Of a stretch of 12,025 nt of DNA, positions 2,815 through 11,783 are shown one piece after another. The translations under genes were made by a program, and so were the position numbers. The notes beneath the pieces were generated by a model, which saw nothing but the letters and a program-made list of their open reading frames with translations, was not told the DNA's origin and made no database searches. Every line of letters begins with the position of its first letter. Position 1 is the first letter of the stretch. This DNA comes from Candidatus Hermodarchaeota archaeon (GTDB taxonomy: Archaea; Asgardarchaeota; Lokiarchaeia; Sigyniarchaeales; SOKP01). The stretch is from NCBI GenBank assembly GCA_048885925.1, contig JBHLLG010000089.1, positions 1 through 12,025 of the forward strand, given 5' to 3'.

Positions 2815-3519
2815 ATGAACATTACAAGATTTGTAACGGTATATATTGTTCAAGGAATAATGTGTGCTTATTTTGCTTTTTTAGCTTATAAAATTCTCAA
2901 ACGAGATAGAAAGCGTCTAAACCTAATATTTGCAGGATTTTATATTAGTAATGTTATTAGTTTATGTATTAATTTTATCTACGCAGCAATTACCGATGAA
3001 ATCATTGTATTGATAATGCATTCTATAACAACTTATTTTGCATTTTATTCTCCTATATTTATATTAGTATTTGAACTATTGGTGTTAAAACCAGAAAAGA
3101 TCAAAAGTCCGAAAAAACAGAAATTAATATTGATTAGTTATGCTGTTATTCTTTCTTTCATGGTGATTTTTCTATCAATAGAAAATTGGGGTGTAGAAAT
3201 TGAAGCTCCTGATTGGACACCTCATTGGATGTTGCCTTTCTTTATTTATTTAGTATCAATTGTATCTATATGTGTCGTAGGTCCCTCATTTTTCATTTCA
3301 TATCGAATATTCAAGAAATTTGAGGATAACCAATTGAGAAAAAAGTGGAAGTCTTTTATTTTTGGATTGGGTGCATTCTATGCCTGTGCATATGGTATTT
3401 TTATTTCGAACTTTTTAAATATCCCTATTTTTAGAACTGTAATAGGAATAATAGATCTAGTCTTGATTATTTCTGGTGGATATTTAATGTATTTTGGAGT
3501 AGGACGTCAATTAGAGTAA
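2815..3519 (+). CDS. Stand-alone seven-transmembrane protein (7TM-A), HisKA_7TM-like receptor fold inferred
   Basis: Seven hydrophobic segments. Basic loops follow TM1 (KILKRDRKR), TM3 (KPEKIKSPKKQK) and TM5 (RIFKKFEDNQLRKKWK). No cytoplasmic output domain. Clear paralog of 7TM-B. Confidence 0.85.
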   Translation: MNITRFVTVYIVQGIMCAYFAFLAYKILKRDRKRLNLIFAGFYISNVISLCINFIYAAITDEIIVLIMHSITTYFAFYSPIFILVFELLVLKPEKIKSPKKQKLILISYAVILSFMVIFLSIENWGVEIEAPDWTPHWMLPFFIYLVSIVSICVVGPSFFISYRIFKKFEDNQLRKKWKSFIFGLGAFYACAYGIFISNFLNIPIFRTVIGIIDLVLIISGGYLMYFGVGRQLE

Positions 3520-3761
3520 ATAGTTTTATTTATTTTAAATAGAAGATGGGAGAACATTCACTTTACTAGGGAGTATCACTCTTCTAAGATTTTCTTTTCT
3601 CATAGATATTCTTATTCATTATTTTCGCCTCTTATAAAACTCTTAATAAAAAATTAGTTGTTAATAATTAAAATATTTGGATATTATTCGCAAAATGGAC
3701 TAATTTCTTCGACATAATTGCCTTTTTATTTTAATGTTGTACTATTACGATGGAAAACCAC

Positions 3762-3786
3762 TAAATATGATCATATTTAAATATGA
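3762..3786. promoter_or_regulatory. Overlapping perfect palindromes (three TAAATATGA half-sites) upstream of the longin-like gene
   Basis: TAAATATGATCATATTTA (3762-3779, 18 bp, perfect) overlaps TCATATTTAAATATGA (3771-3786, 16 bp, perfect). It contains TATA-like TTTAAATA at 3776-3783. Confidence 0.5.
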
Positions 3787-3866
3787 AAGTTTCGTCGTTT
3801 TATAATGTTGTTCATATAAGAATATCATTTAAATGCGATTTGGTTTAATTTACTTCACTGTTCACA

Positions 3867-4322
3867 ATGTTGATTCGAGAAGCTGGTATACTCTTTCATG
3901 GAATTCCCATTGTATTTACTAGTTATCATAGGGCTAGTAAGGACAATTTAAATTTAATTTGCTCAAGTGGATTAATGAGTGGGCTTCTATCTTTCGCAGA
4001 ATGTTTAATGGAGCCTGTTGAATATTTTGAAAGTGATAAATACTCTATAATTTTTAAGAAAGGAACAATAACAGATATATTCAGACATGCACAAGAAATT
4101 GTTGCTTTTATGGTCATAGATAAAGATTATAGACTAGAGAAATATTTAAAGAAAACAATTTTACCTTTACTAAAAAAGTTATTAAATAAATTTGTATCTC
4201 AATTTACTGGTTGTAACCTTATGAAAGTTGGTCAATTTGAATCTTTTAGAAAAGTAATTAATAAAATTTTTGGAACTGGTACTCTAACTTTGGAAGAGAA
4301 GGTTATATCTTTATTGAAATAA
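3867..4322 (+). CDS. Longin-like domain protein (Asgard eukaryotic-signature type)
   Basis: Apparent beta-beta-alpha-beta-beta-beta-alpha-alpha pattern: IREAGIL / GIPIVFTSY / SGLMSGLLSFAECLM / VEYFES / YSIIFKK / IVAFMVID / LKKLLNKFVSQF / FESFRKVINKIF. The fold assignment is by pattern recognition. Confidence 0.7.
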   Translation: MLIREAGILFHGIPIVFTSYHRASKDNLNLICSSGLMSGLLSFAECLMEPVEYFESDKYSIIFKKGTITDIFRHAQEIVAFMVIDKDYRLEKYLKKTILPLLKKLLNKFVSQFTGCNLMKVGQFESFRKVINKIFGTGTLTLEEKVISLLK

Positions 4323-4361
4323 CTAGAAGTATAAATATTTAGGTGAAATAGGCTAATTAAT

Positions 4362-5468
4362 TCAGTTCATACGAGAAAAAAATATTTCCCTAACTTTATT
4401 ATAGAGCGGTCTATTTAGATCAAGACAGTCTACTTTTAAAACTTGAGATCCTCCATTAGGATAGTATGCCATTATAACTGAATCATATAACGTCCAATTC
4501 AAATTACTGAAACCTATATCATATCCAAGTATATTGAACCCTTTCTCAAGAGCAAGAGACATTGAATGTATTCCATTTTGTGTTGTAGGGATTCTCCATA
4601 AAATAATTCTCCAAGCATTATAAGTCTTAAGCAAGTTATTCAATGATTTTTCCTTGATGTAGCCATATAAATTCAATATTCCCTCGTAGAAATCCTTAGA
4701 AACACCATAAAGTTCAAACGATTTCCTTTTTTTCCCTCGATCTAATATTAAAACATCATTATTCATTCTTTTTCGAGCGATATTTTTTATATAATTATAA
4801 AAAAAGATGAAATCTTCATTATCTAATAAATGAATTTCTTTTTCTCTTTGTTTCCATAGGCTCTTAAATATAAGTGAATATAGAAATGCTGCTTCTTCAT
4901 TTACCGGAGGTGGTGGTTTGTTACTTTTAACTTCATATTTCCGTTTATCTCCCAAATTTATAAAAGCTGGGATCAAACCGTAGGGTATTCCACCAGCATC
5001 TTGTATAGTTTTTTGAGCACCAATTTTTATAGTTCGGGCTTCTCCATCAAGTCTTAATACATCTTTGAATTGAGGCATTCTAGTTGCGAAAATGATACCT
5101 GCGGTACCCATTTTAGCAGCCATTCCTATCCCTTGAAATTTTTTCTTTACAACCAATGAACCCGCATGTGCAATATATCTATTTTTCGCAATTAATCCTG
5201 CGCCTCCTATTTCACTATTTTCTAAGAGTTCACCTATAAACCAAAAACTATTTTTCCTAGATAATTCTTTTTTAAAAAGCTCTATATTATAGACATATGG
5301 TTTGATATATTGATAACCATATATCTCCTTAAAAATACTCGAGAGACTTTTTGCATCATCAGGAGTCGCTAATCTTAATCCGAATTCTTGACCCTCTCTT
5401 GATAAAAACTTTTGAATATATACAGATTCCTCTTGTAATCTAGTATATTTTTTACTTATAGAATGCAT
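4362..5468 (-). CDS. GNAT-family N-acetyltransferase with a C-terminal extension (possible degenerate second GNAT fold)
   Basis: GNAT start LRLATPDDA, acetyl-CoA motif A LVVKKKFQGIGMA, and GEART...AQK. The C-terminal ALEKGFNILGY resembles a second motif B. Confidence 0.8.
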   Translation of the reverse strand: MHSISKKYTRLQEESVYIQKFLSREGQEFGLRLATPDDAKSLSSIFKEIYGYQYIKPYVYNIELFKKELSRKNSFWFIGELLENSEIGGAGLIAKNRYIAHAGSLVVKKKFQGIGMAAKMGTAGIIFATRMPQFKDVLRLDGEARTIKIGAQKTIQDAGGIPYGLIPAFINLGDKRKYEVKSNKPPPPVNEEAAFLYSLIFKSLWKQREKEIHLLDNEDFIFFYNYIKNIARKRMNNDVLILDRGKKRKSFELYGVSKDFYEGILNLYGYIKEKSLNNLLKTYNAWRIILWRIPTTQNGIHSMSLALEKGFNILGYDIGFSNLNWTLYDSVIMAYYPNGGSQVLKVDCLDLNRPLYNKVREIFFSRMN

Positions 5469-5524
5469 TTTAATCGCTGACGAATTACCTTTTTTAAGGA
5501 ACTAATTAATACTTTTCAAACGAA

Positions 5525-5540
5525 TATTTATAAAACTTTC
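5525..5540 (-). promoter_or_regulatory. Candidate BRE/TATA promoter of the GNAT gene
   Basis: The minus strand reads GAAAG-TTTTATAAATA: a purine-rich BRE-like stretch, then TTTATAAA at 5534-5527, about 60 nt upstream of ATG 5468. Confidence 0.5.
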
Positions 5541-5560
5541 TTTTTTTCACGTGAAAAAAA
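5541..5560. promoter_or_regulatory. 20-bp perfect palindrome centred on CACGTG
   Basis: TTTTTTTCACGTGAAAAAAA, extendable to 5537-5565 with one bulge. It abuts the BRE/TATA candidate. Confidence 0.45.
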
Positions 5561-5570
5561 AGAAATATGA

Positions 5571-5617
5571 TGAAACAATAAATGTTAAAATTGATAATAC
5601 AAACATTTATTCTTTCA
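5571..5617. repeat. 16-bp-arm inverted repeat (1 mismatch, 15-nt loop) downstream of 7TM-B
   Basis: TGAAACAATAAATGTT (5571-5586) pairs with AACATTTATTCTTTCA (5602-5617). Confidence 0.45.
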
Positions 5618-5645
5618 ATTTCTATAAAGCTTAAGCAGATTAATA

Positions 5646-6410
5646 TTATTGTTTTAATTTAAAACCAATTCCATAGTACATTAAAGAAACCCAAATTATT
5701 ACTGTCATTGTATATAAACTAATAATAAAATTAAAAGTAGGATTTTCCCCTCCTAGATACTTAAAATAATTAATTAGATTGTTACTAAAAACGATATATG
5801 CCATACTAAATGATCCAAATACACCAACCAAAAAACAAAACCATTTTTTTTTTAGAGTTTTCGTTTCAAAACTGTTGTAAATCTTTATGGACGTGATTAT
5901 TATTGGTATTATTTCAAAAGCAGAAATCATGAAAATTATAAAAATAAAAAACGGTGGAGCCCAAATTATTCCCGATTCCGTTGGTTTAACACCCCAGAAC
6001 TTACCTTCCCCTAAAGATTCTTCGCCAAGGAGAAAGCAAAATATGAACATTCCGATAAAAAGTGCTATGCCATAGATCATTATATATCGATTTTGTCTTT
6101 TTTCAGAATATATTATTGTAGATTCTAATATTATCCAATTTACAACAAGAATAAATACTGGTCCAAAACATATGAGAAATATAGCAGAAAAATGAAAAAT
6201 CAATATAGCTGTTAAATCTGTGATCACGTAATAAATCATATTTAAACATAAACTAATAGTGGTACATATAAAAAATCCACTAATAATAAAATTTAGTCGT
6301 TGCTTTTTTCTTTTTATTATTTTGTAAGCCAAAATTGAGAAAAAAATCACGTAAATTCCAAAAACCACATAGATTGTTATGAATCTTCCTGTGTCAATTT
6401 GAAAGAACAT
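5646..6410 (-). CDS. Stand-alone seven-transmembrane protein (7TM-B), paralog of 7TM-A
   Basis: Shares RF.T.Y.V.GI, LAYKI.KR...RLN, ISLC.N.IY..ITD, P.FILV, WGV, W..PFFI, FE...L.KKW..F..G and LMY.G.G with 7TM-A. I moved the start from GTG 6422 to ATG 6410 because that GTG lies inside an SD-like GGTGA about 8 nt upstream of the ATG. Confidence 0.85.
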   Translation of the reverse strand: MFFQIDTGRFITIYVVFGIYVIFFSILAYKIIKRKKQRLNFIISGFFICTTISLCLNMIYYVITDLTAILIFHFSAIFLICFGPVFILVVNWIILESTIIYSEKRQNRYIMIYGIALFIGMFIFCFLLGEESLGEGKFWGVKPTESGIIWAPPFFIFIIFMISAFEIIPIIITSIKIYNSFETKTLKKKWFCFLVGVFGSFSMAYIVFSNNLINYFKYLGGENPTFNFIISLYTMTVIIWVSLMYYGIGFKLKQ

Positions 6411-6586
6411 GATTTTTTTCACCAGTTATTTATGCATTAATTCTAAAAAATTAGGTATTAGTTCTTTTTTAATTAATATATTATTCAAACTTGGATTTAA
6501 ATAAATTTGCTTGAACAATAATTGAATTCCAATTTTTGATTGGCTTCTTAATAAAAAATTATTAACTGTTATATAAATAAATTAAA

Positions 6587-7162
6587 TTAACTTAAACTTA
6601 AAGTCTTCAATCTTTGAATAATTTTCCATTCTATTATTAGCTTTTGTACGCTCATTGGGACTAAATGCTCCCAGCTGTCTTCATTTATCATAAAATTACG
6701 TATATCAGTTGAACTAAGTCCCTTTTTCTCTAACGGAACTTCCCAAAGCACGTGAATTTTCAATCCTAATGATTCAAAATATTCTTTTTTTTTTCTACCC
6801 CAATCATCATAGATAGTTAGAAAAAAAATCGCATCCATTGGTACGTAATATTTGACGAGTTCTGGAATATTAATGGGAAATGGGACAATAGAAAAATCAG
6901 AAAAATGTAAGTTTTGTTCTAAAAGAGCTTCTTGGACCATTTTATAACGTTCATAGTATGTTAATGGATTGGCAATAGGGTTACTCCTGTGAGGATTCAC
7001 TTCTGAATCTCTGGTTAAGGAAGGATCTGGATTCGTAATACCTACTATGAGATGTTTACATAATTTTTTTCCTGCTAAAAGATACTTTATATGATCATTA
7101 TGTAATATTTGGAATCTTCCATGAATCACTCCAATATCATAAATTGGGGTTTTTTTTTTCAT
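6587..7162 (-). CDS. Nicotinamide/nicotinate mononucleotide adenylyltransferase-like protein (NadM-like, cytidylyltransferase superfamily)
   Basis: GRFQILHNDH (HxGH variant), NPLTYYER, LSSTDIR and WEHLVP correspond to the NadM motifs GRFQPFHxGH, NPFT..ER, S.T.IR and W..LVP. Confidence 0.8.
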   Translation of the reverse strand: MKKKTPIYDIGVIHGRFQILHNDHIKYLLAGKKLCKHLIVGITNPDPSLTRDSEVNPHRSNPIANPLTYYERYKMVQEALLEQNLHFSDFSIVPFPINIPELVKYYVPMDAIFFLTIYDDWGRKKKEYFESLGLKIHVLWEVPLEKKGLSSTDIRNFMINEDSWEHLVPMSVQKLIIEWKIIQRLKTLSLS

Positions 7163-7342: not shown

Positions 7343-8533
7343 ATGACAATCACAAACCTTTTTGAAGCAAAATTTGGCAAGTTAATAGATTCAAACAATG
7401 CATCTCAAGATAGTGTTAAATTTATTCATGCTAGCGATGTACATCTCGGTACGGCTCAATATAGTAATGATTATAGATCAGATGATTTCATTCGAGCTTT
7501 TCAAGAGATCTTGGAGTTAGCAATCACAAACCAAGTTGATTTTATTTTATTAGGAGGAGATGTATTTACATCACTAGAAATGCTACCAGGAAAACTAACT
7601 ATAATCGTTAAAATATTAAAGGATTTCAAAGAGTTTACAAATAGAACTATTTTAATCATATCCATAGAAGGGAATCATGATATCAGAAAATTCTCAAGAG
7701 GAAAAAGATTTGAACACCGAGGTCAGTCATGGTTAAAACTTTTAAATAGCTTAGGATTGATCATCCTCCTTGATACTGACTTAGATGTCCCTTTAGAAAA
7801 GATTTTTGAACCTTATAATTATAAAACAAAAAGAGGGGGAAAAATTCAAATTAAAGATGTAGTGATTTATGGGACACGTTATCTTGGCGAAAAACCAATA
7901 TTTTATCTCTCAAAAATAAGTAAAGCAATAAATGTTAATGATAATTTATTTAACATTCTTTTACAGCATTTTGGCATAGAAGGTCAAATGGAAAATATTC
8001 CTGGAGTTGGTTTGGATCAAATTCAAGCATTAAAACATCGAATAGATTATTTAGCTTTAGGTCATTTTCATAAGCAATTTATTGTCGAAGATTGGATTTA
8101 TAATCCTGGCTCTTCAGAAGCCGTTTGTTCTATTGATAATTCATTTAAAAGAGGTATTTTTTTAGTAGAAATTTCGAAAAAGTTAGGGAACTTCGCAAAA
8201 AAAGTAAAATCCATACGTTTATCAAATCGAAAGTACCTTTGGGAAACAGTTTTTTTGAATAATGAATTTAGAAATAGAAAAGATGTTGAAGAATACATAA
8301 TTAGTAAATTATACTCCTCATTAAAATATCTTAACAATAATATCAATCCATCGAATCCTCGAATGCCTATATTATATTTAATTTTAAAAGGTAAGGAACC
8401 GTCAAAAACTTGTAAAATAAAAGAAAAGGATTTAAAAACAAAAATTTACGAAAATTTTCCTGTTGTAGATGTTAAAATTTACCAGAAATTTGAAAAATTA
8501 TTAAGGACCTTAGATAATTATGTTTTAGCTTGA
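7343..8533 (+). CDS. Mre11/SbcD-family metallophosphoesterase (DNA repair exonuclease-like)
   Basis: All five phosphoesterase motifs are present: HASDVHLG, GGDVF, GNHD, LQH, YLALGHFH, followed by YNPGSSE and a capping-domain-like C-terminus. No symbol is given because orthology to canonical mre11 is uncertain without an adjacent rad50. Confidence 0.9.
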   Translation: MTITNLFEAKFGKLIDSNNASQDSVKFIHASDVHLGTAQYSNDYRSDDFIRAFQEILELAITNQVDFILLGGDVFTSLEMLPGKLTIIVKILKDFKEFTNRTILIISIEGNHDIRKFSRGKRFEHRGQSWLKLLNSLGLIILLDTDLDVPLEKIFEPYNYKTKRGGKIQIKDVVIYGTRYLGEKPIFYLSKISKAINVNDNLFNILLQHFGIEGQMENIPGVGLDQIQALKHRIDYLALGHFHKQFIVEDWIYNPGSSEAVCSIDNSFKRGIFLVEISKKLGNFAKKVKSIRLSNRKYLWETVFLNNEFRNRKDVEEYIISKLYSSLKYLNNNINPSNPRMPILYLILKGKEPSKTCKIKEKDLKTKIYENFPVVDVKIYQKFEKLLRTLDNYVLA

Positions 8534-8602: not shown

Positions 8603-10207
8603 ATGAGGATAAACTATTTTTTAAAAAAAAATAAATTTTTTTCAATAATTTCTATTGCATTTTTTGTATGGTTAATTTTTCTTACAATTTTATCTATTAT
8701 CTCTCAAAGAAATGTATTATTCTATGATGTTCTTGCGCAAGAGGATATCTCTTCAGAATTTTCAAGTAAATTGCCAGCTCAAAGATACTTTATAGAACCT
8801 TTTTATGCTATTGCTTATGTTTTAGAATTTGAATTTACTTGGATGTTTCTATTTTTAATGTTTTATCCAATTGTAAGAGGAATATATTTGTATTTAAAAA
8901 AAAGAGGTTTGCTTAATTCCAATAAATATCAATCTATAAGCTATCCTTTAGTGGATATTCTTTATTTTTCTTTCAAAATTTTTATGTCTATTCTTTTAAT
9001 TATAGGTCTATCTATGCTTATTGGGTATCTAATACTAGGTTTTTACTTTGTTAGTAGATATTTTATGGTCCCAGTTCAAATAGGCATTCATGCAGGCTTG
9101 ATTCTCATTTTTATAAAAGTAGGTTATACTTTACTCAAATTATTTCATCCGAAATTAAAACTTAACTTAATTAAAAAATTTTCAAAACCAAGAAAAAATA
9201 AAAGTGTCAGGAGACAGAGCCTAAAAAGGGAAATAGTGTTTTATATTAGCATTGGTGCTTTATTACTTAGTGCTAATATAATCTTAATCTCTACACCGTT
9301 CCCATCTCATGAAATAATCCCTACTATACCACTTGAAGAGGATGAATTTTTATTTGATTTTCATGTTCACACTATAATGTCAGATGGTTGGCTTACAATC
9401 GAAGAAAGAATAAATTGGTATATCCAACAAGGTATCTCCGGAGCTGCATTTTCAGACCATGATAATATAAGAGGAGCTAGAATTGCCCAAAAATATGTAG
9501 ATGAACAAGGATTAGATTTTATTGTCTTTATGGCAGAAGAATGGACGGATAATGACCTTGACATCCACATTAACTATTTTGGTCTAGCCGAAGAAATAGT
9601 TTCACCAATGTCAGATAACCCTTTCACTTTAGTAATGAATGCTTCGGATATGATTGAATACGTTAAAAGTAAAGGAGGATATGTGATTGTAAATCATTAT
9701 AATTACGATCCAAATCCGAATGGAGGGTATGGAGTTCCTTATACCTTAGATCAATTGAGAGGGTGGGGTGTTGACGGTTTTGAAATCGTTAATGGTGATA
9801 GCTATGGAAGTAAATACCAACATATAAGGAATTATTGTTTAGATTATAATCTAACCTGTATTGGAGGAAGTGATATTCATACCTGTGAAGATTTAAACAC
9901 ATTTATTAAATTGAAACTAGAAGATCCAACAAATTTAACTATATCTAATATTTTTGAAACCTTAAAAAAGAATACTCATCAAGTTATCGCAATTAGATTA
10001 AACCCTAAAACTGTAGATTTCTCTGGAGATTTGAACGATATTGGATTTTATGTGTTACAAGATTTCATAAATTATATTTTAAATATAAATGTGTACCAAA
10101 CTCTGTCTTGGATTATTTGGTCAGTATTAATCTATTTAATCTTCTATATTGCCTATAGAAAGATAAAGCGAGTGGATTTAGAGTTGTTAAAATATAAAAT
10201 TTTTTAG
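8603..10207 (+). CDS. Polytopic membrane protein with a PHP-family phosphoesterase domain
   Basis: About 5 N-terminal TM segments, then PHP motifs DFHVHT..SDG, FSDHD, EEW, HIN, VNH and GGSDIH, then one C-terminal TM helix. Confidence 0.85.
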   Translation: MRINYFLKKNKFFSIISIAFFVWLIFLTILSIISQRNVLFYDVLAQEDISSEFSSKLPAQRYFIEPFYAIAYVLEFEFTWMFLFLMFYPIVRGIYLYLKKRGLLNSNKYQSISYPLVDILYFSFKIFMSILLIIGLSMLIGYLILGFYFVSRYFMVPVQIGIHAGLILIFIKVGYTLLKLFHPKLKLNLIKKFSKPRKNKSVRRQSLKREIVFYISIGALLLSANIILISTPFPSHEIIPTIPLEEDEFLFDFHVHTIMSDGWLTIEERINWYIQQGISGAAFSDHDNIRGARIAQKYVDEQGLDFIVFMAEEWTDNDLDIHINYFGLAEEIVSPMSDNPFTLVMNASDMIEYVKSKGGYVIVNHYNYDPNPNGGYGVPYTLDQLRGWGVDGFEIVNGDSYGSKYQHIRNYCLDYNLTCIGGSDIHTCEDLNTFIKLKLEDPTNLTISNIFETLKKNTHQVIAIRLNPKTVDFSGDLNDIGFYVLQDFINYILNINVYQTLSWIIWSVLIYLIFYIAYRKIKRVDLELLKYKIF

Positions 10208-10269: not shown

Positions 10270-10725
10270 CTATATATAATAACCAGTGTTATCTTCCTTA
10301 TAATTATCTGAATCATCGTCATCGTCGTCATCTTGACCCAGAAATTTTTTAAAGTATTTTATTAATTCTTCTGGATTATCTTTAAAATCTTTAGGGAGAT
10401 CATTAGGGTCTATTCTAATAATACCACCACTTTTCATAGGTATTATTTTATTGCGTATATTTTTCTCAATTCTTTCTTGTCTTTTCTCATTCAATAGTAA
10501 TTCTCTTTTCATCAATTCCTTTAATTCATTTACAACAAGTTTATCCAAATAGCTGGGTTCAAATTCTAAAAGATCTTCATGATTATAGAATTTAGAAATT
10601 CTTTTAATTGCTTTTTCTTTTTTAGATTCTGGAATTTGACTAATACTTTCAAGGTTTAACATTGATAAGATGTTTAACCAATCAAGTTTAAAGGTCCAAC
10701 TTAATTCTTTTTCGTCTTCTTCCAT
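10270..10725 (-). CDS. Hypothetical charged protein with a poly-Asp C-terminal tail
   Basis: 151-aa K/E-rich ORF ending QDDDDDDDSDNYKEDNTGYYI. No family recognised. Confidence 0.75.
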   Translation of the reverse strand: MEEDEKELSWTFKLDWLNILSMLNLESISQIPESKKEKAIKRISKFYNHEDLLEFEPSYLDKLVVNELKELMKRELLLNEKRQERIEKNIRNKIIPMKSGGIIRIDPNDLPKDFKDNPEELIKYFKKFLGQDDDDDDDSDNYKEDNTGYYI

Positions 10726-10946: not shown

Positions 10947-11783
10947 CTAATTACTAATAAATTTTCGAATTTTTGACGAAACAAATTCAGGATCATCATG
11001 GGTAATCCAATGTGAAGAAGTTTCATGTCTTTCTATTTGTAAATCTTTAATATAATCGGATAATCCTTCTAATAATTGGGGTTTCAAAGCTAAATCATTC
11101 ATTCCCCACAAAACTAAGGTAGGAACTTCAATCATACCTGTCCATTCACTAAAACTCCTATTTGCCCTATAATAATTTACACCTCCTTCTATTGCTCCAG
11201 GTTGAGACCAAGCCTCAATGTATTTCTGTCTATCAAAATCGGTAAAATGTTCTGTAAAAACTGCTGCTTTTAATGCTTTATAATCGTTTTCAATAATGAA
11301 CTTTTCACCATGAGGTTTATAAAATTCAAATATATAAAAACTCGCTTTTTGTTGCTCTTTATCAGTTCTTAATTTTTGTTCAAAAATTTTATGGTGTGGC
11401 GCATTCAATATAATTAATTTATTTAACAATTGGGGATATTTTTCAGCAAATAACCAAGCTATAGCGCCCCCCCAGTCATGTCCTGCTAAGTTAAACTTCC
11501 CTAATTTTAATGCTTCACTCAATCCTTTAATATCTTCTATTAGAATTTCTATTTTGTAATTTTCGACACCTTTAGGCTTATCAGATAAATTATACCCTCT
11601 CAAATCTGGGACTATTAATCTAAAATCATCTCTAAGAAGAGGTATTACTTTTGACCAGCAATACCAAAATTCTGGAAAACCATGTAATAAAATCAAAGGT
11701 TCTCCCGATCCTACAAGAATGGTATGAAGTTTTATCCCATTTGTTTCTATAAATACTTCTTTTTTCTCATCTAAGATTGTCAT
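10947..11783 (-). CDS. Alpha/beta hydrolase, epoxide-hydrolase-like
   Basis: HGFP oxyanion motif, DLRGYNLS, Asp nucleophile in GHDWGG, candidate lid tyrosines (SFYI, NYYRAN), acid in WGMND and catalytic His in SSHW. Confidence 0.92.
   Translation of the reverse strand: MTILDEKKEVFIETNGIKLHTILVGSGEPLILLHGFPEFWYCWSKVIPLLRDDFRLIVPDLRGYNLSDKPKGVENYKIEILIEDIKGLSEALKLGKFNLAGHDWGGAIAWLFAEKYPQLLNKLIILNAPHHKIFEQKLRTDKEQQKASFYIFEFYKPHGEKFIIENDYKALKAAVFTEHFTDFDRQKYIEAWSQPGAIEGGVNYYRANRSFSEWTGMIEVPTLVLWGMNDLALKPQLLEGLSDYIKDLQIERHETSSHWITHDDPEFVSSKIRKFISN

Follow-up and report, generated by a model that had tools for sequence, protein, structure and literature searches.

A conserved gene trio encoding a seven-transmembrane protein, a GNAT-like protein and a longin-like protein in Lokiarchaeia: a candidate membrane module

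Sensory rhodopsin II is a stand-alone archaeal seven-transmembrane (7TM) sensor that signals via a separately encoded partner, the transducer HtrII, whose gene is adjacent to its own. The domain HisKA_7TM (PF16927) is described in a published account as the 7TM sensor region at the N terminus of archaeal histidine kinases (PMC5847659), and the accessible text of a preprint mentions in passing Asgard "7TM proteins" and a cluster termed "a class C GPCR" (bioRxiv 10.64898/2026.10.28.762692). Here we analyse a locus of Candidatus Hermodarchaeota archaeon (assembly GCA_048885925.1) at which two 7TM genes, designated 7TM-A and 7TM-B, enclose genes for a longin-like and a GNAT-like protein. The window, by which we mean the whole stretch of DNA analysed, is one entire contig of 12,025 bases (JBHLLG010000089.1) from a genome of 3.9 Mb with about 27% G+C, and near homologues carry the source names Promethearchaeota or Lokiarchaeota. 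The conserved and old unit of the locus is the trio of 7TM-B, GNAT and longin genes, which occupies a variable genomic slot and is either wholly present or wholly absent in genomes of the genus, and the three proteins probably work together at the membrane. No description of 7TM-GNAT-longin linkage was found in searchable published text (preprint supplements being outside the scope), and the linkage appears to be undescribed.

The open reading frames (ORFs) of the four genes are as given in a first-pass annotation that was made from the letters of the sequence. 7TM-A (2815–3519, plus strand; 234 amino acids (aa)) and 7TM-B (minus strand; 5646–6410 and 254 aa from an ATG, or 5646–6422 and 258 aa from a GTG) encode stand-alone seven-helix membrane proteins. 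Between them lie the longin-like gene (3867–4322, plus strand), for a single-domain longin-fold protein of 151 aa, and the GNAT-like gene (4362–5468, minus strand), for a putative two-part acyltransferase-like protein of 368 aa. The longin and GNAT genes converge with their ends 39 nucleotides (nt) apart, while the annotated gaps, 347 nt between 7TM-A and longin and 177 nt between 7TM-B and GNAT, are exact. The two 7TM proteins were rightly taken as paralogues, showing 35% identity (E 2e-35), and it is 7TM-B whose subfamily accompanies the GNAT and longin genes. Pfam names none of the four proteins, its sole trace being a sub-threshold GNAT match, and NCBIfam matches none of them; Rfam and tRNA scans of the window also yielded no match.

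Within the genus, 24 genomes were surveyed and the GNAT gene was additionally sought in 52 others. All genomes compared in this study are kin, such that counts and correlations are not independent and carry no valid P value. Of the 24 genomes, 20 share one arrangement, in which the longin gene is followed by the GNAT gene and a 7TM-B-type gene, both on the other strand; one of these trios is split by a contig end and another (genome G003, locus L035) has undergone a tandem duplication of the 7TM-GNAT pair, yielding two diverged pairs. Four genomes have none of the three genes, and 40 of the 52 other genus genomes carry the GNAT gene. The first-pass annotation had taken as its unit the symmetric four-gene mirror, a layout that is real in the window but occurs in only five of the 20 trio-bearing genomes. 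Since the flanks are collinear over at least 10 genes within the genus, synteny at this level alone could reflect inherited gene order. Plain block conservation as a reading of the genus synteny was set aside in view of the variable slot and the all-or-none occurrence of the trio: in G206 and G220, which have no trio, the flanks f8-f5 and CTPt-MPE-PHP remain in place with unrelated genes between them.

Outside the genus, the sample comprised 81 loci with a 7TM ORF from 29 genomes. At nine of the loci (eight genomes, from families f1, f2, f4 and f7) the 7TM gene has a longin-family gene no more than two genes away, and at five loci (four genomes) a gene of this GNAT family no more than four genes away. 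The order is longin-7TM-GNAT, all on one strand, in G182 (L071), longin-7TM in G188 and G030, 7TM-7TM-longin in G167 and 7TM-GNAT in G191; in G270 the GNAT gene is convergent with the 7TM gene, and in family f2 the order is 7TM-(434-aa protein)-longin. None of these partners was found at 56 of the 81 loci, and the link therefore belongs to subfamilies and not to the whole 7TM family. Seen from the partner side, seven of 18 strong longin-family genes (five genomes) have a 7TM gene at a distance of at most 2.5 kb, as against about 0.1 that we would expect by chance, and five of six strong GNAT genes are located within 3.5 kb of one. The GNAT gene is nearly always a neighbour of the 7TM-B subfamily. 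Conservation of the gene neighbourhood had been offered as the check on the annotated module, and longin and GNAT genes proved to be strongly enriched near 7TM genes in several Lokiarchaeial families. In a tree of 98 members of the 7TM family (IQ-TREE quick search), the GNAT- and/or longin-linked 7TMs of genera g1, g15, g16 and g18 form one clade that includes 7TM-B, with a Shimodaira–Hasegawa-like approximate likelihood ratio test (SH-aLRT) value of 99, and the GNAT-linked 7TM of genus g22, paired with an unlinked copy, falls in the next larger clade (SH-aLRT 96). The variable slot, the reshuffled linkage outside the genus and the partner-side enrichment together argue that the trio is not merely inherited order. 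The f2 protein located between the 7TM and longin genes (432–436 aa; L109:5545-6849, L114:5580-6890, L117:5260-6558 and L127:7896-9194) has no Pfam match and was considered as a GNAT candidate; it was rejected on a non-significant hhalign comparison with the GNAT profile (E 0.1).

Co-variation was assessed on one alignment per gene, covering 20 units that come from 19 genus loci. Divergence within the region is greatest in 7TM-B and GNAT, with median pairwise identities of 51.8% and 59.1%, respectively, as against 77.5% for longin and 69–89% for the flanks. The Spearman rho between them is 0.50, compared with 0.07–0.35 for either against the other genes, while longin correlates with the flanks at 0.50–0.73. 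The pattern is illustrated by G001, which is the genome nearest to this one by 7TM-A and longin (82% each), yet its 7TM-B and GNAT show 52 and 57% identity as against 61 and 68% for those of G023. Because linkage of the trio is conserved, and because 7TM-B and GNAT show a co-variation that the flanks do not share, a functional link between 7TM-B, GNAT and longin is supported. If, instead, the three were neighbours only through a shared variable island, block inheritance or loss, one would readily understand the collinear block of at least 10 genes in the genus, the unrelated genes that also enter the trio's slot, the separate putative promoters described below and the partnerless loci outside the genus. 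We consider this quite improbable, however, given that the genes remain adjacent in different genera and families even where their order and strand have changed, that the enrichment over chance is large and that 7TM-B and GNAT vary together independently of their surroundings.

The two halves of 7TM-B evolve differently. Mean column identity is 0.64 in the inner half (0.81 in intracellular loop 2) and 0.43 in the outer half (0.15 in extracellular loop 3), with a Mann-Whitney P of 1.4e-8 for columns that are not independent, and the lysine/arginine-rich inner loops are conserved. GNAT correlates with the inner half at a rho of 0.61 and with the outer half at 0.33, whereas the corresponding values for longin are 0.09 and 0.36. 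That GNAT tracks the inner half favours its coupling to the cytoplasmic face of 7TM-B, although the outer half is noisier and the comparison is not decisive. The reading that we prefer, with a confidence somewhat short of even, is a membrane module in which a HisKA_7TM-related sensor of GPCR (G-protein-coupled receptor) fold would be coupled at its inner face to a co-evolving GNAT, with longin as a general adaptor. The hub would be 7TM-B, a stand-alone membrane sensor perceiving a cue at its outer face and then docking or controlling the cytosolic GNAT at the conserved inner face, and the GNAT would acylate a protein or a small molecule. Longin, which evolves slowly with the genomic backbone and occurs beside 7TMs in four families, would most likely act at this inner face too, as a general adaptor or as a dimer platform.

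Several points weigh against this membrane module. Gene linkage proves neither binding nor the direction of signalling, which leaves the annotated direction from receptor via adaptor to acetylation output unsupported, and the locus is known here from sequence and structure models alone. The GNAT fold is assigned from weak sequence evidence, fast-changing outer loops are common in membrane proteins generally, and the GNAT and longin genes are convergent, with conserved putative promoters of their own. Moreover, the partnerless majority of loci outside the genus must be set against it, as must GNAT homologues in G033, G038 and G029:C15 that have no neighbouring 7TM match in tblastn searches with the two window proteins. 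A complex prediction for 7TM-B with GNAT scored 0.00 in both runs, which counts neither for nor against binding.

Asgard sensing of the surroundings, and the role of the many longin/roadblock proteins of these archaea, are largely unknown, and the locus presents a matched three-protein set that recurs in several Lokiarchaeial families. If the three act together, they would constitute a sensor architecture without a kinase, cyclase or methyl-accepting output, and archaeal longin proteins would gain one of their first native partners. A wider proposal, to which we attach a low probability, is that Lokiarchaeia carry a class of stand-alone GPCR-fold receptors signalling not via a fused kinase or cyclase but via separate cytosolic partners, a co-evolving two-part acyltransferase as effector and a longin adaptor, with exchangeable specificity pairs, and that eukaryotic receptor/longin-platform signalling could have had its forerunner here; if true, prokaryotes would possess a receptor-adaptor-enzyme design that has not been described in them.

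LuxI-type and N-acyl-amino-acid synthases have the GNAT fold, and the GNAT of the trio might likewise make a diffusible acylated small molecule that the 7TM senses, the two constituting exchangeable specificity pairs with longin relaying inside the cell. The fast and joint evolution of 7TM-B and GNAT, decoupled from the flanks, fits such a synthase and receptor, as do the two diverged tandem pairs of G003, the more distant 7TM-B/GNAT pair in the otherwise closest genome G001 and the outer position of the variable half of 7TM-B; moreover, the GNAT's own putative promoter with a conserved palindrome would suit autoregulation. A sister 7TM subfamily that occurs with two GNAT-like proteins at 12 loci, three of them with an ORF family carrying a ThiF-type motif, also speaks for it. 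We nevertheless judge it unlikely, since the predicted tracking by GNAT of the ligand-facing outer half failed (0.33 versus 0.61 for the inner half) and neither an exporter nor a product is known.

The loci of the sister subfamily are L065:5881-10047 together with L062, L075, L077, L078, L081, L085, L094, L103, L104, L135 and L136. One of their two GNAT-like proteins, of about 341 aa, has a C-terminal Acetyltransf_1 match (E 2.6e-6) and the other, of about 408 aa, has weak N-terminal GNAT matches, while the additional ORF (family 22) at three of the loci has a ThiF-type N-terminal glycine-rich motif, read from its sequence; together they look like a small biosynthetic cassette.

The predicted structure of 7TM-A consists of seven helices, with a predicted local distance difference test (pLDDT) score of 92.4, and includes a beta hairpin in the second outer loop. 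The helices of the 7TM model show GPCR-type packing, and the positive-inside rule gives an N-out/C-in orientation. Foldseek aligned the model to GPCRs with TM-scores of up to 0.72, and the top 50 of 48,161 chains searched were GPCRs only, with no rhodopsin among them. The likeness to eukaryotic GPCRs, including adhesion receptors (ADGRL3/CD97), the class C receptor GABA-B and class A peptide receptors, lies in the fold (TM-score at most 0.72) and the N-out/C-in orientation, whereas sequence identity is 4–14% and no G protein is known for the 7TM family. Class A GPCRs carry the motifs DRY, CWxP and NPxxY, none of which was present when sought at the matching helix ends of the 7TM alignment. Sensory rhodopsin II and HtrII provide the parallel of a stand-alone archaeal 7TM protein with an adjoining gene for a separately encoded partner; the window 7TMs differ in that no retinal lysine is evident and their fold matches GPCRs, and in that a soluble protein, GNAT or longin, is the partner in place of a membrane HAMP transducer. 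The GPCR fold alone gives no link to eukaryotes because bacterial 7TM sensor domains, according to one study, look GPCR-like too (PMC10760455).

The 7TM family accounts for 471 representative clusters among 1.84 billion proteins, and members are encoded in 156 of the 399 phylum genomes, nearly all from two families (125 of 133 genomes in f1 and 14 of 14 in f2). Its conserved residues are R30, N53, Y56, Q102, G126, P136, G184, N199, Y226 and G228. The annotated lack of an output domain agrees with the lengths of 133–329 aa found among the best 150 of the 471 relatives, and fused forms, sought among proteins of 477–2000 aa, were not found, which is weak evidence. One member from the public collection, P0255 (329 aa), continues past the seven helices with an additional C-terminal tail of about 80 aa and is, among the listed members, the only one clearly above 290 aa.

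Kinship with HisKA_7TM, as implied in the first-pass annotation, found support only in a remote form. The Pfam model (cut-off 28.6 bits) matches one of 27 family members (E 0.038) and, at E of 0.01 or below, none of the four 7TM copies of this genome; where the model does match in relatives, it picks out other proteins, most of which are longer. When the 7TM family profile was compared by hhalign with a profile of seven kinase-fused HisKA_7TM domains, all above the Pfam cut-off and from the same order, the match extended over 164 collinear columns with a probability of 82% and an E of 9.9e-6, and a language-model lead for the family also points to HisKA_7TM. This suggests, short of proof, that the 7TM family is a remote, output-less relative of the HisKA_7TM sensor domain. 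The two have seven helices in common. They differ in that the window 7TMs have no kinase or other output domain, their partners being separate GNAT and longin genes, in that the Pfam model is blind to them and in that a position N-terminal to a histidine kinase core is not seen in the best 150 of the 471 relatives.

A loose parallel exists in the MprF or FemX-type double-GNAT systems, and the locus could encode a membrane machine for acylation or biosynthesis that does not signal, in which the 7TM protein would anchor the enzyme or would present, flip or transport a lipid or envelope precursor for acylation by the GNAT. This could explain the tight adjacency of the 7TM and GNAT genes, the co-variation of GNAT with the cytoplasmic half of 7TM-B, the enzyme-rich cassettes of the related 7TM subfamily and the basic, conserved inner loops. 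It is less easily reconciled with fold matches that are receptors and not transporters, or with the apparent kinship to a kinase sensor domain; the few conserved polar residues (R30, N53, Y56, Q102 and N199) form no obvious catalytic set and the role of longin is left unexplained, and we hold such a machine to be rather improbable.

The annotated GNAT identity fared unevenly, in that the Pfam match to Acetyltransf_10 is below threshold (E 0.064; 13.7 bits against a cut-off of 23.6), whereas the family profile aligned over residues 31–159 with the solved GNAT 3g8w at an E of 7e-4, and more weakly with 3ddd, Ard1 (4pv6) and RimI (9mto). GNATs bind the pyrophosphate of acyl-CoA with a loop of the form Q/R-x-x-G-x-G/A. 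The N-terminal half of the protein appears to constitute the GNAT core and carries a conserved Q-G-x-G loop, Q-G-I-G-M-A at about residues 112–117, of which G115 is invariant in 25 sequences, while no fold is assigned to the C-terminal half. The 135 GNAT homologues are unnamed, with PF00583 found in one of 120 of those listed, and the nearest language-model clusters (score 0.96) are of bacterial GNATs of 320–405 aa. The evidence weakly identifies the 368-aa protein as GNAT-type, with a two-part acyltransferase-like structure. It resembles the uncharacterised bacterial clusters of two-domain GNATs in length and in its N-terminal GNAT core and acyl-CoA loop, but the GNAT family of the window is limited to two Lokiarchaeial families and to 57 of the 399 phylum genomes.

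The 151-aa protein was correctly annotated as longin-like, since its predicted fold, with the order beta-beta-alpha-beta-beta-beta-alpha-alpha, superposes on solved longin domains. The Pfam longin-type models Longin, Sybindin, Sedlin_N and Clat_adaptor_s gave no match to it at E of 0.1 or below. Identity to single longin-domain proteins, including Bet5/Trs23 of TRAPP, AP sigma, COPI zeta, the N-termini of Sec22b/VAMP7 and the Lokiarchaeal Roadblock-Longin protein 8yqg, is 6–16%, and the window longin differs from these in having no Pfam match, no known GTPase or coat partner and, as gene neighbours, 7TM and GNAT genes. At another locus, L054:3597-6137 (G025:C231), three longin-like ORFs of 148, 325 and 181 aa occur in tandem, two of them with near-identical N termini.

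The first-pass annotation had linked the longin protein to a GTPase and proposed a GPCR-like logic. This was not borne out, in that the contig carries no small GTPase, the genome having 58 Ras-like ORFs, and nothing ties the longin protein to one. In such a logic the signal would pass from the 7TM via longin to a small GTPase encoded elsewhere, with the GNAT as a side player. The longin fold is that of many GTPase regulators, longin genes lie beside 7TMs in four families, there are 58 Ras-like ORFs, a distance of 2.4 kb separates a longin paralogue on contig C75 from a Ras-family gene, and the tandem-pair subfamily from which 7TM-A derives adjoins a Rab-like protein with a degenerate P-loop (Rab12, E 7e-5). 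However, of the families that recur at most two genes away from a 7TM, only that of the Rab-like protein is GTPase-like, and it neighbours the tandem subfamily and not the trio; longin identity does not follow that of the 7TM-B inner half (rho 0.09), and with 58 GTPase genes chance proximity will be common. We regard this logic as very improbable. The C75 paralogue (C75:3041-3502; L051, 13.6 kb) is the closest longin paralogue in the genome, with 37% identity, and the Ras-family GTPase genes of that contig are located at 63-611 and 8930-9460.

The fourth gene of the window, 7TM-A, has a different history. In the 98-member tree it nests within the tandem-pair clade beside L053_9, the tandem-pair copies of this genome being located at G000:C1:19179-20744, and 7TM-A orthologues occur beside the longin gene elsewhere only in G001, G022, G023 and G016, giving five genomes with this one. 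From its place in the tree, 7TM-A is a late duplicate from this other subfamily that landed beside the longin gene. Since it nests in another subfamily, occurs in five genomes and is decayed in one of them, the four-gene symmetry is a local and recent state. In G016 (C19:311695-312345; L034) the 7TM-A orthologue carries eight in-frame stops (3 TGA, 2 TAG and 3 TAA), while longin, GNAT and 7TM-B are intact. In G000:C1:18062-20750 (L053:5062-7751) the tandem 7TM pair of this genome is preceded by a gene for a 199-aa protein, the family profile of which matches Rab12 (E 7e-5) and Rab6 (E 3e-3). With its degenerate P-loop, this protein may be a pseudo-GTPase, and at five loci a member of its family is encoded no more than two genes from a 7TM.

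Conspicuous palindromes had been annotated upstream of three of the four genes. When each upstream region was compared with 200 mononucleotide composition shuffles, the observed palindrome was reached by two shuffles for 7TM-A and by none for GNAT, but by 46 for longin and 129 for 7TM-B, such that the claim stands for 7TM-A and GNAT only. The palindromes that are conserved differ from those that exceed the shuffles. Upstream of 7TM-A, an AT-rich inverted repeat at 2770–2801 has 15-nt arms and a 2-nt spacer, with a best score of 12, and ends 14 nt before the start of the gene. A second inverted repeat, with 16-nt arms and a 15-nt spacer, lies at 5571–5617 between 7TM-B and GNAT and has no counterpart in the orthologous spacers.

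A putative conserved GNAT promoter region (5490–5565, minus strand) consists of a T-run/CACGTG/A-run palindrome centred at 5550/5551, with CACGTG at 5548–5553, and, directly downstream on the minus strand, a block resembling a B recognition element (BRE) and TATA box. CACGTG is located 76–85 nt before the GNAT ATG at nine of 20 genus loci, most of the others having one-base variants, and the genome contains a single copy of the surrounding 12-mer. The conserved region of 120 nt upstream of the longin gene (3747–3866, plus strand) contains two palindromes and GC-containing inverted arms when 20 genus loci are aligned: a TATA-like box that is AT-rich and palindromic lies between the arms, the second palindrome is about 30–45 nt and a conserved block about 15–25 nt before the ATG, and long runs are conserved at 70% or more. 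No Rfam family matches this region, and a scan for sigma-70-type promoters and terminators, using a bacterial model unsuited to archaea, gave nothing above shuffles. These conserved patterns suggest that GNAT and longin are probably transcribed from their own, regulated promoters. Since both have such regions, and since the two genes are convergent, the trio is not one transcript here, in line with the caveat of separate transcripts raised in the first-pass annotation. The sequencing runs listed with the locus are 20 DNA runs from sediment and soil, with no RNA run among those listed.

Beyond the four genes, the contig carries a gene for a GyrI-like small-molecule-binding protein (2218–2676). 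The conserved right flank of the cassette consists of genes for a cytidylyltransferase-like protein (6587–7162), a calcineurin-like phosphoesterase (7343–8533), a membrane protein with a PHP domain (8603–10207) and an alpha/beta hydrolase (10947–11783), together with an unnamed ORF of 151 aa (10270–10725).

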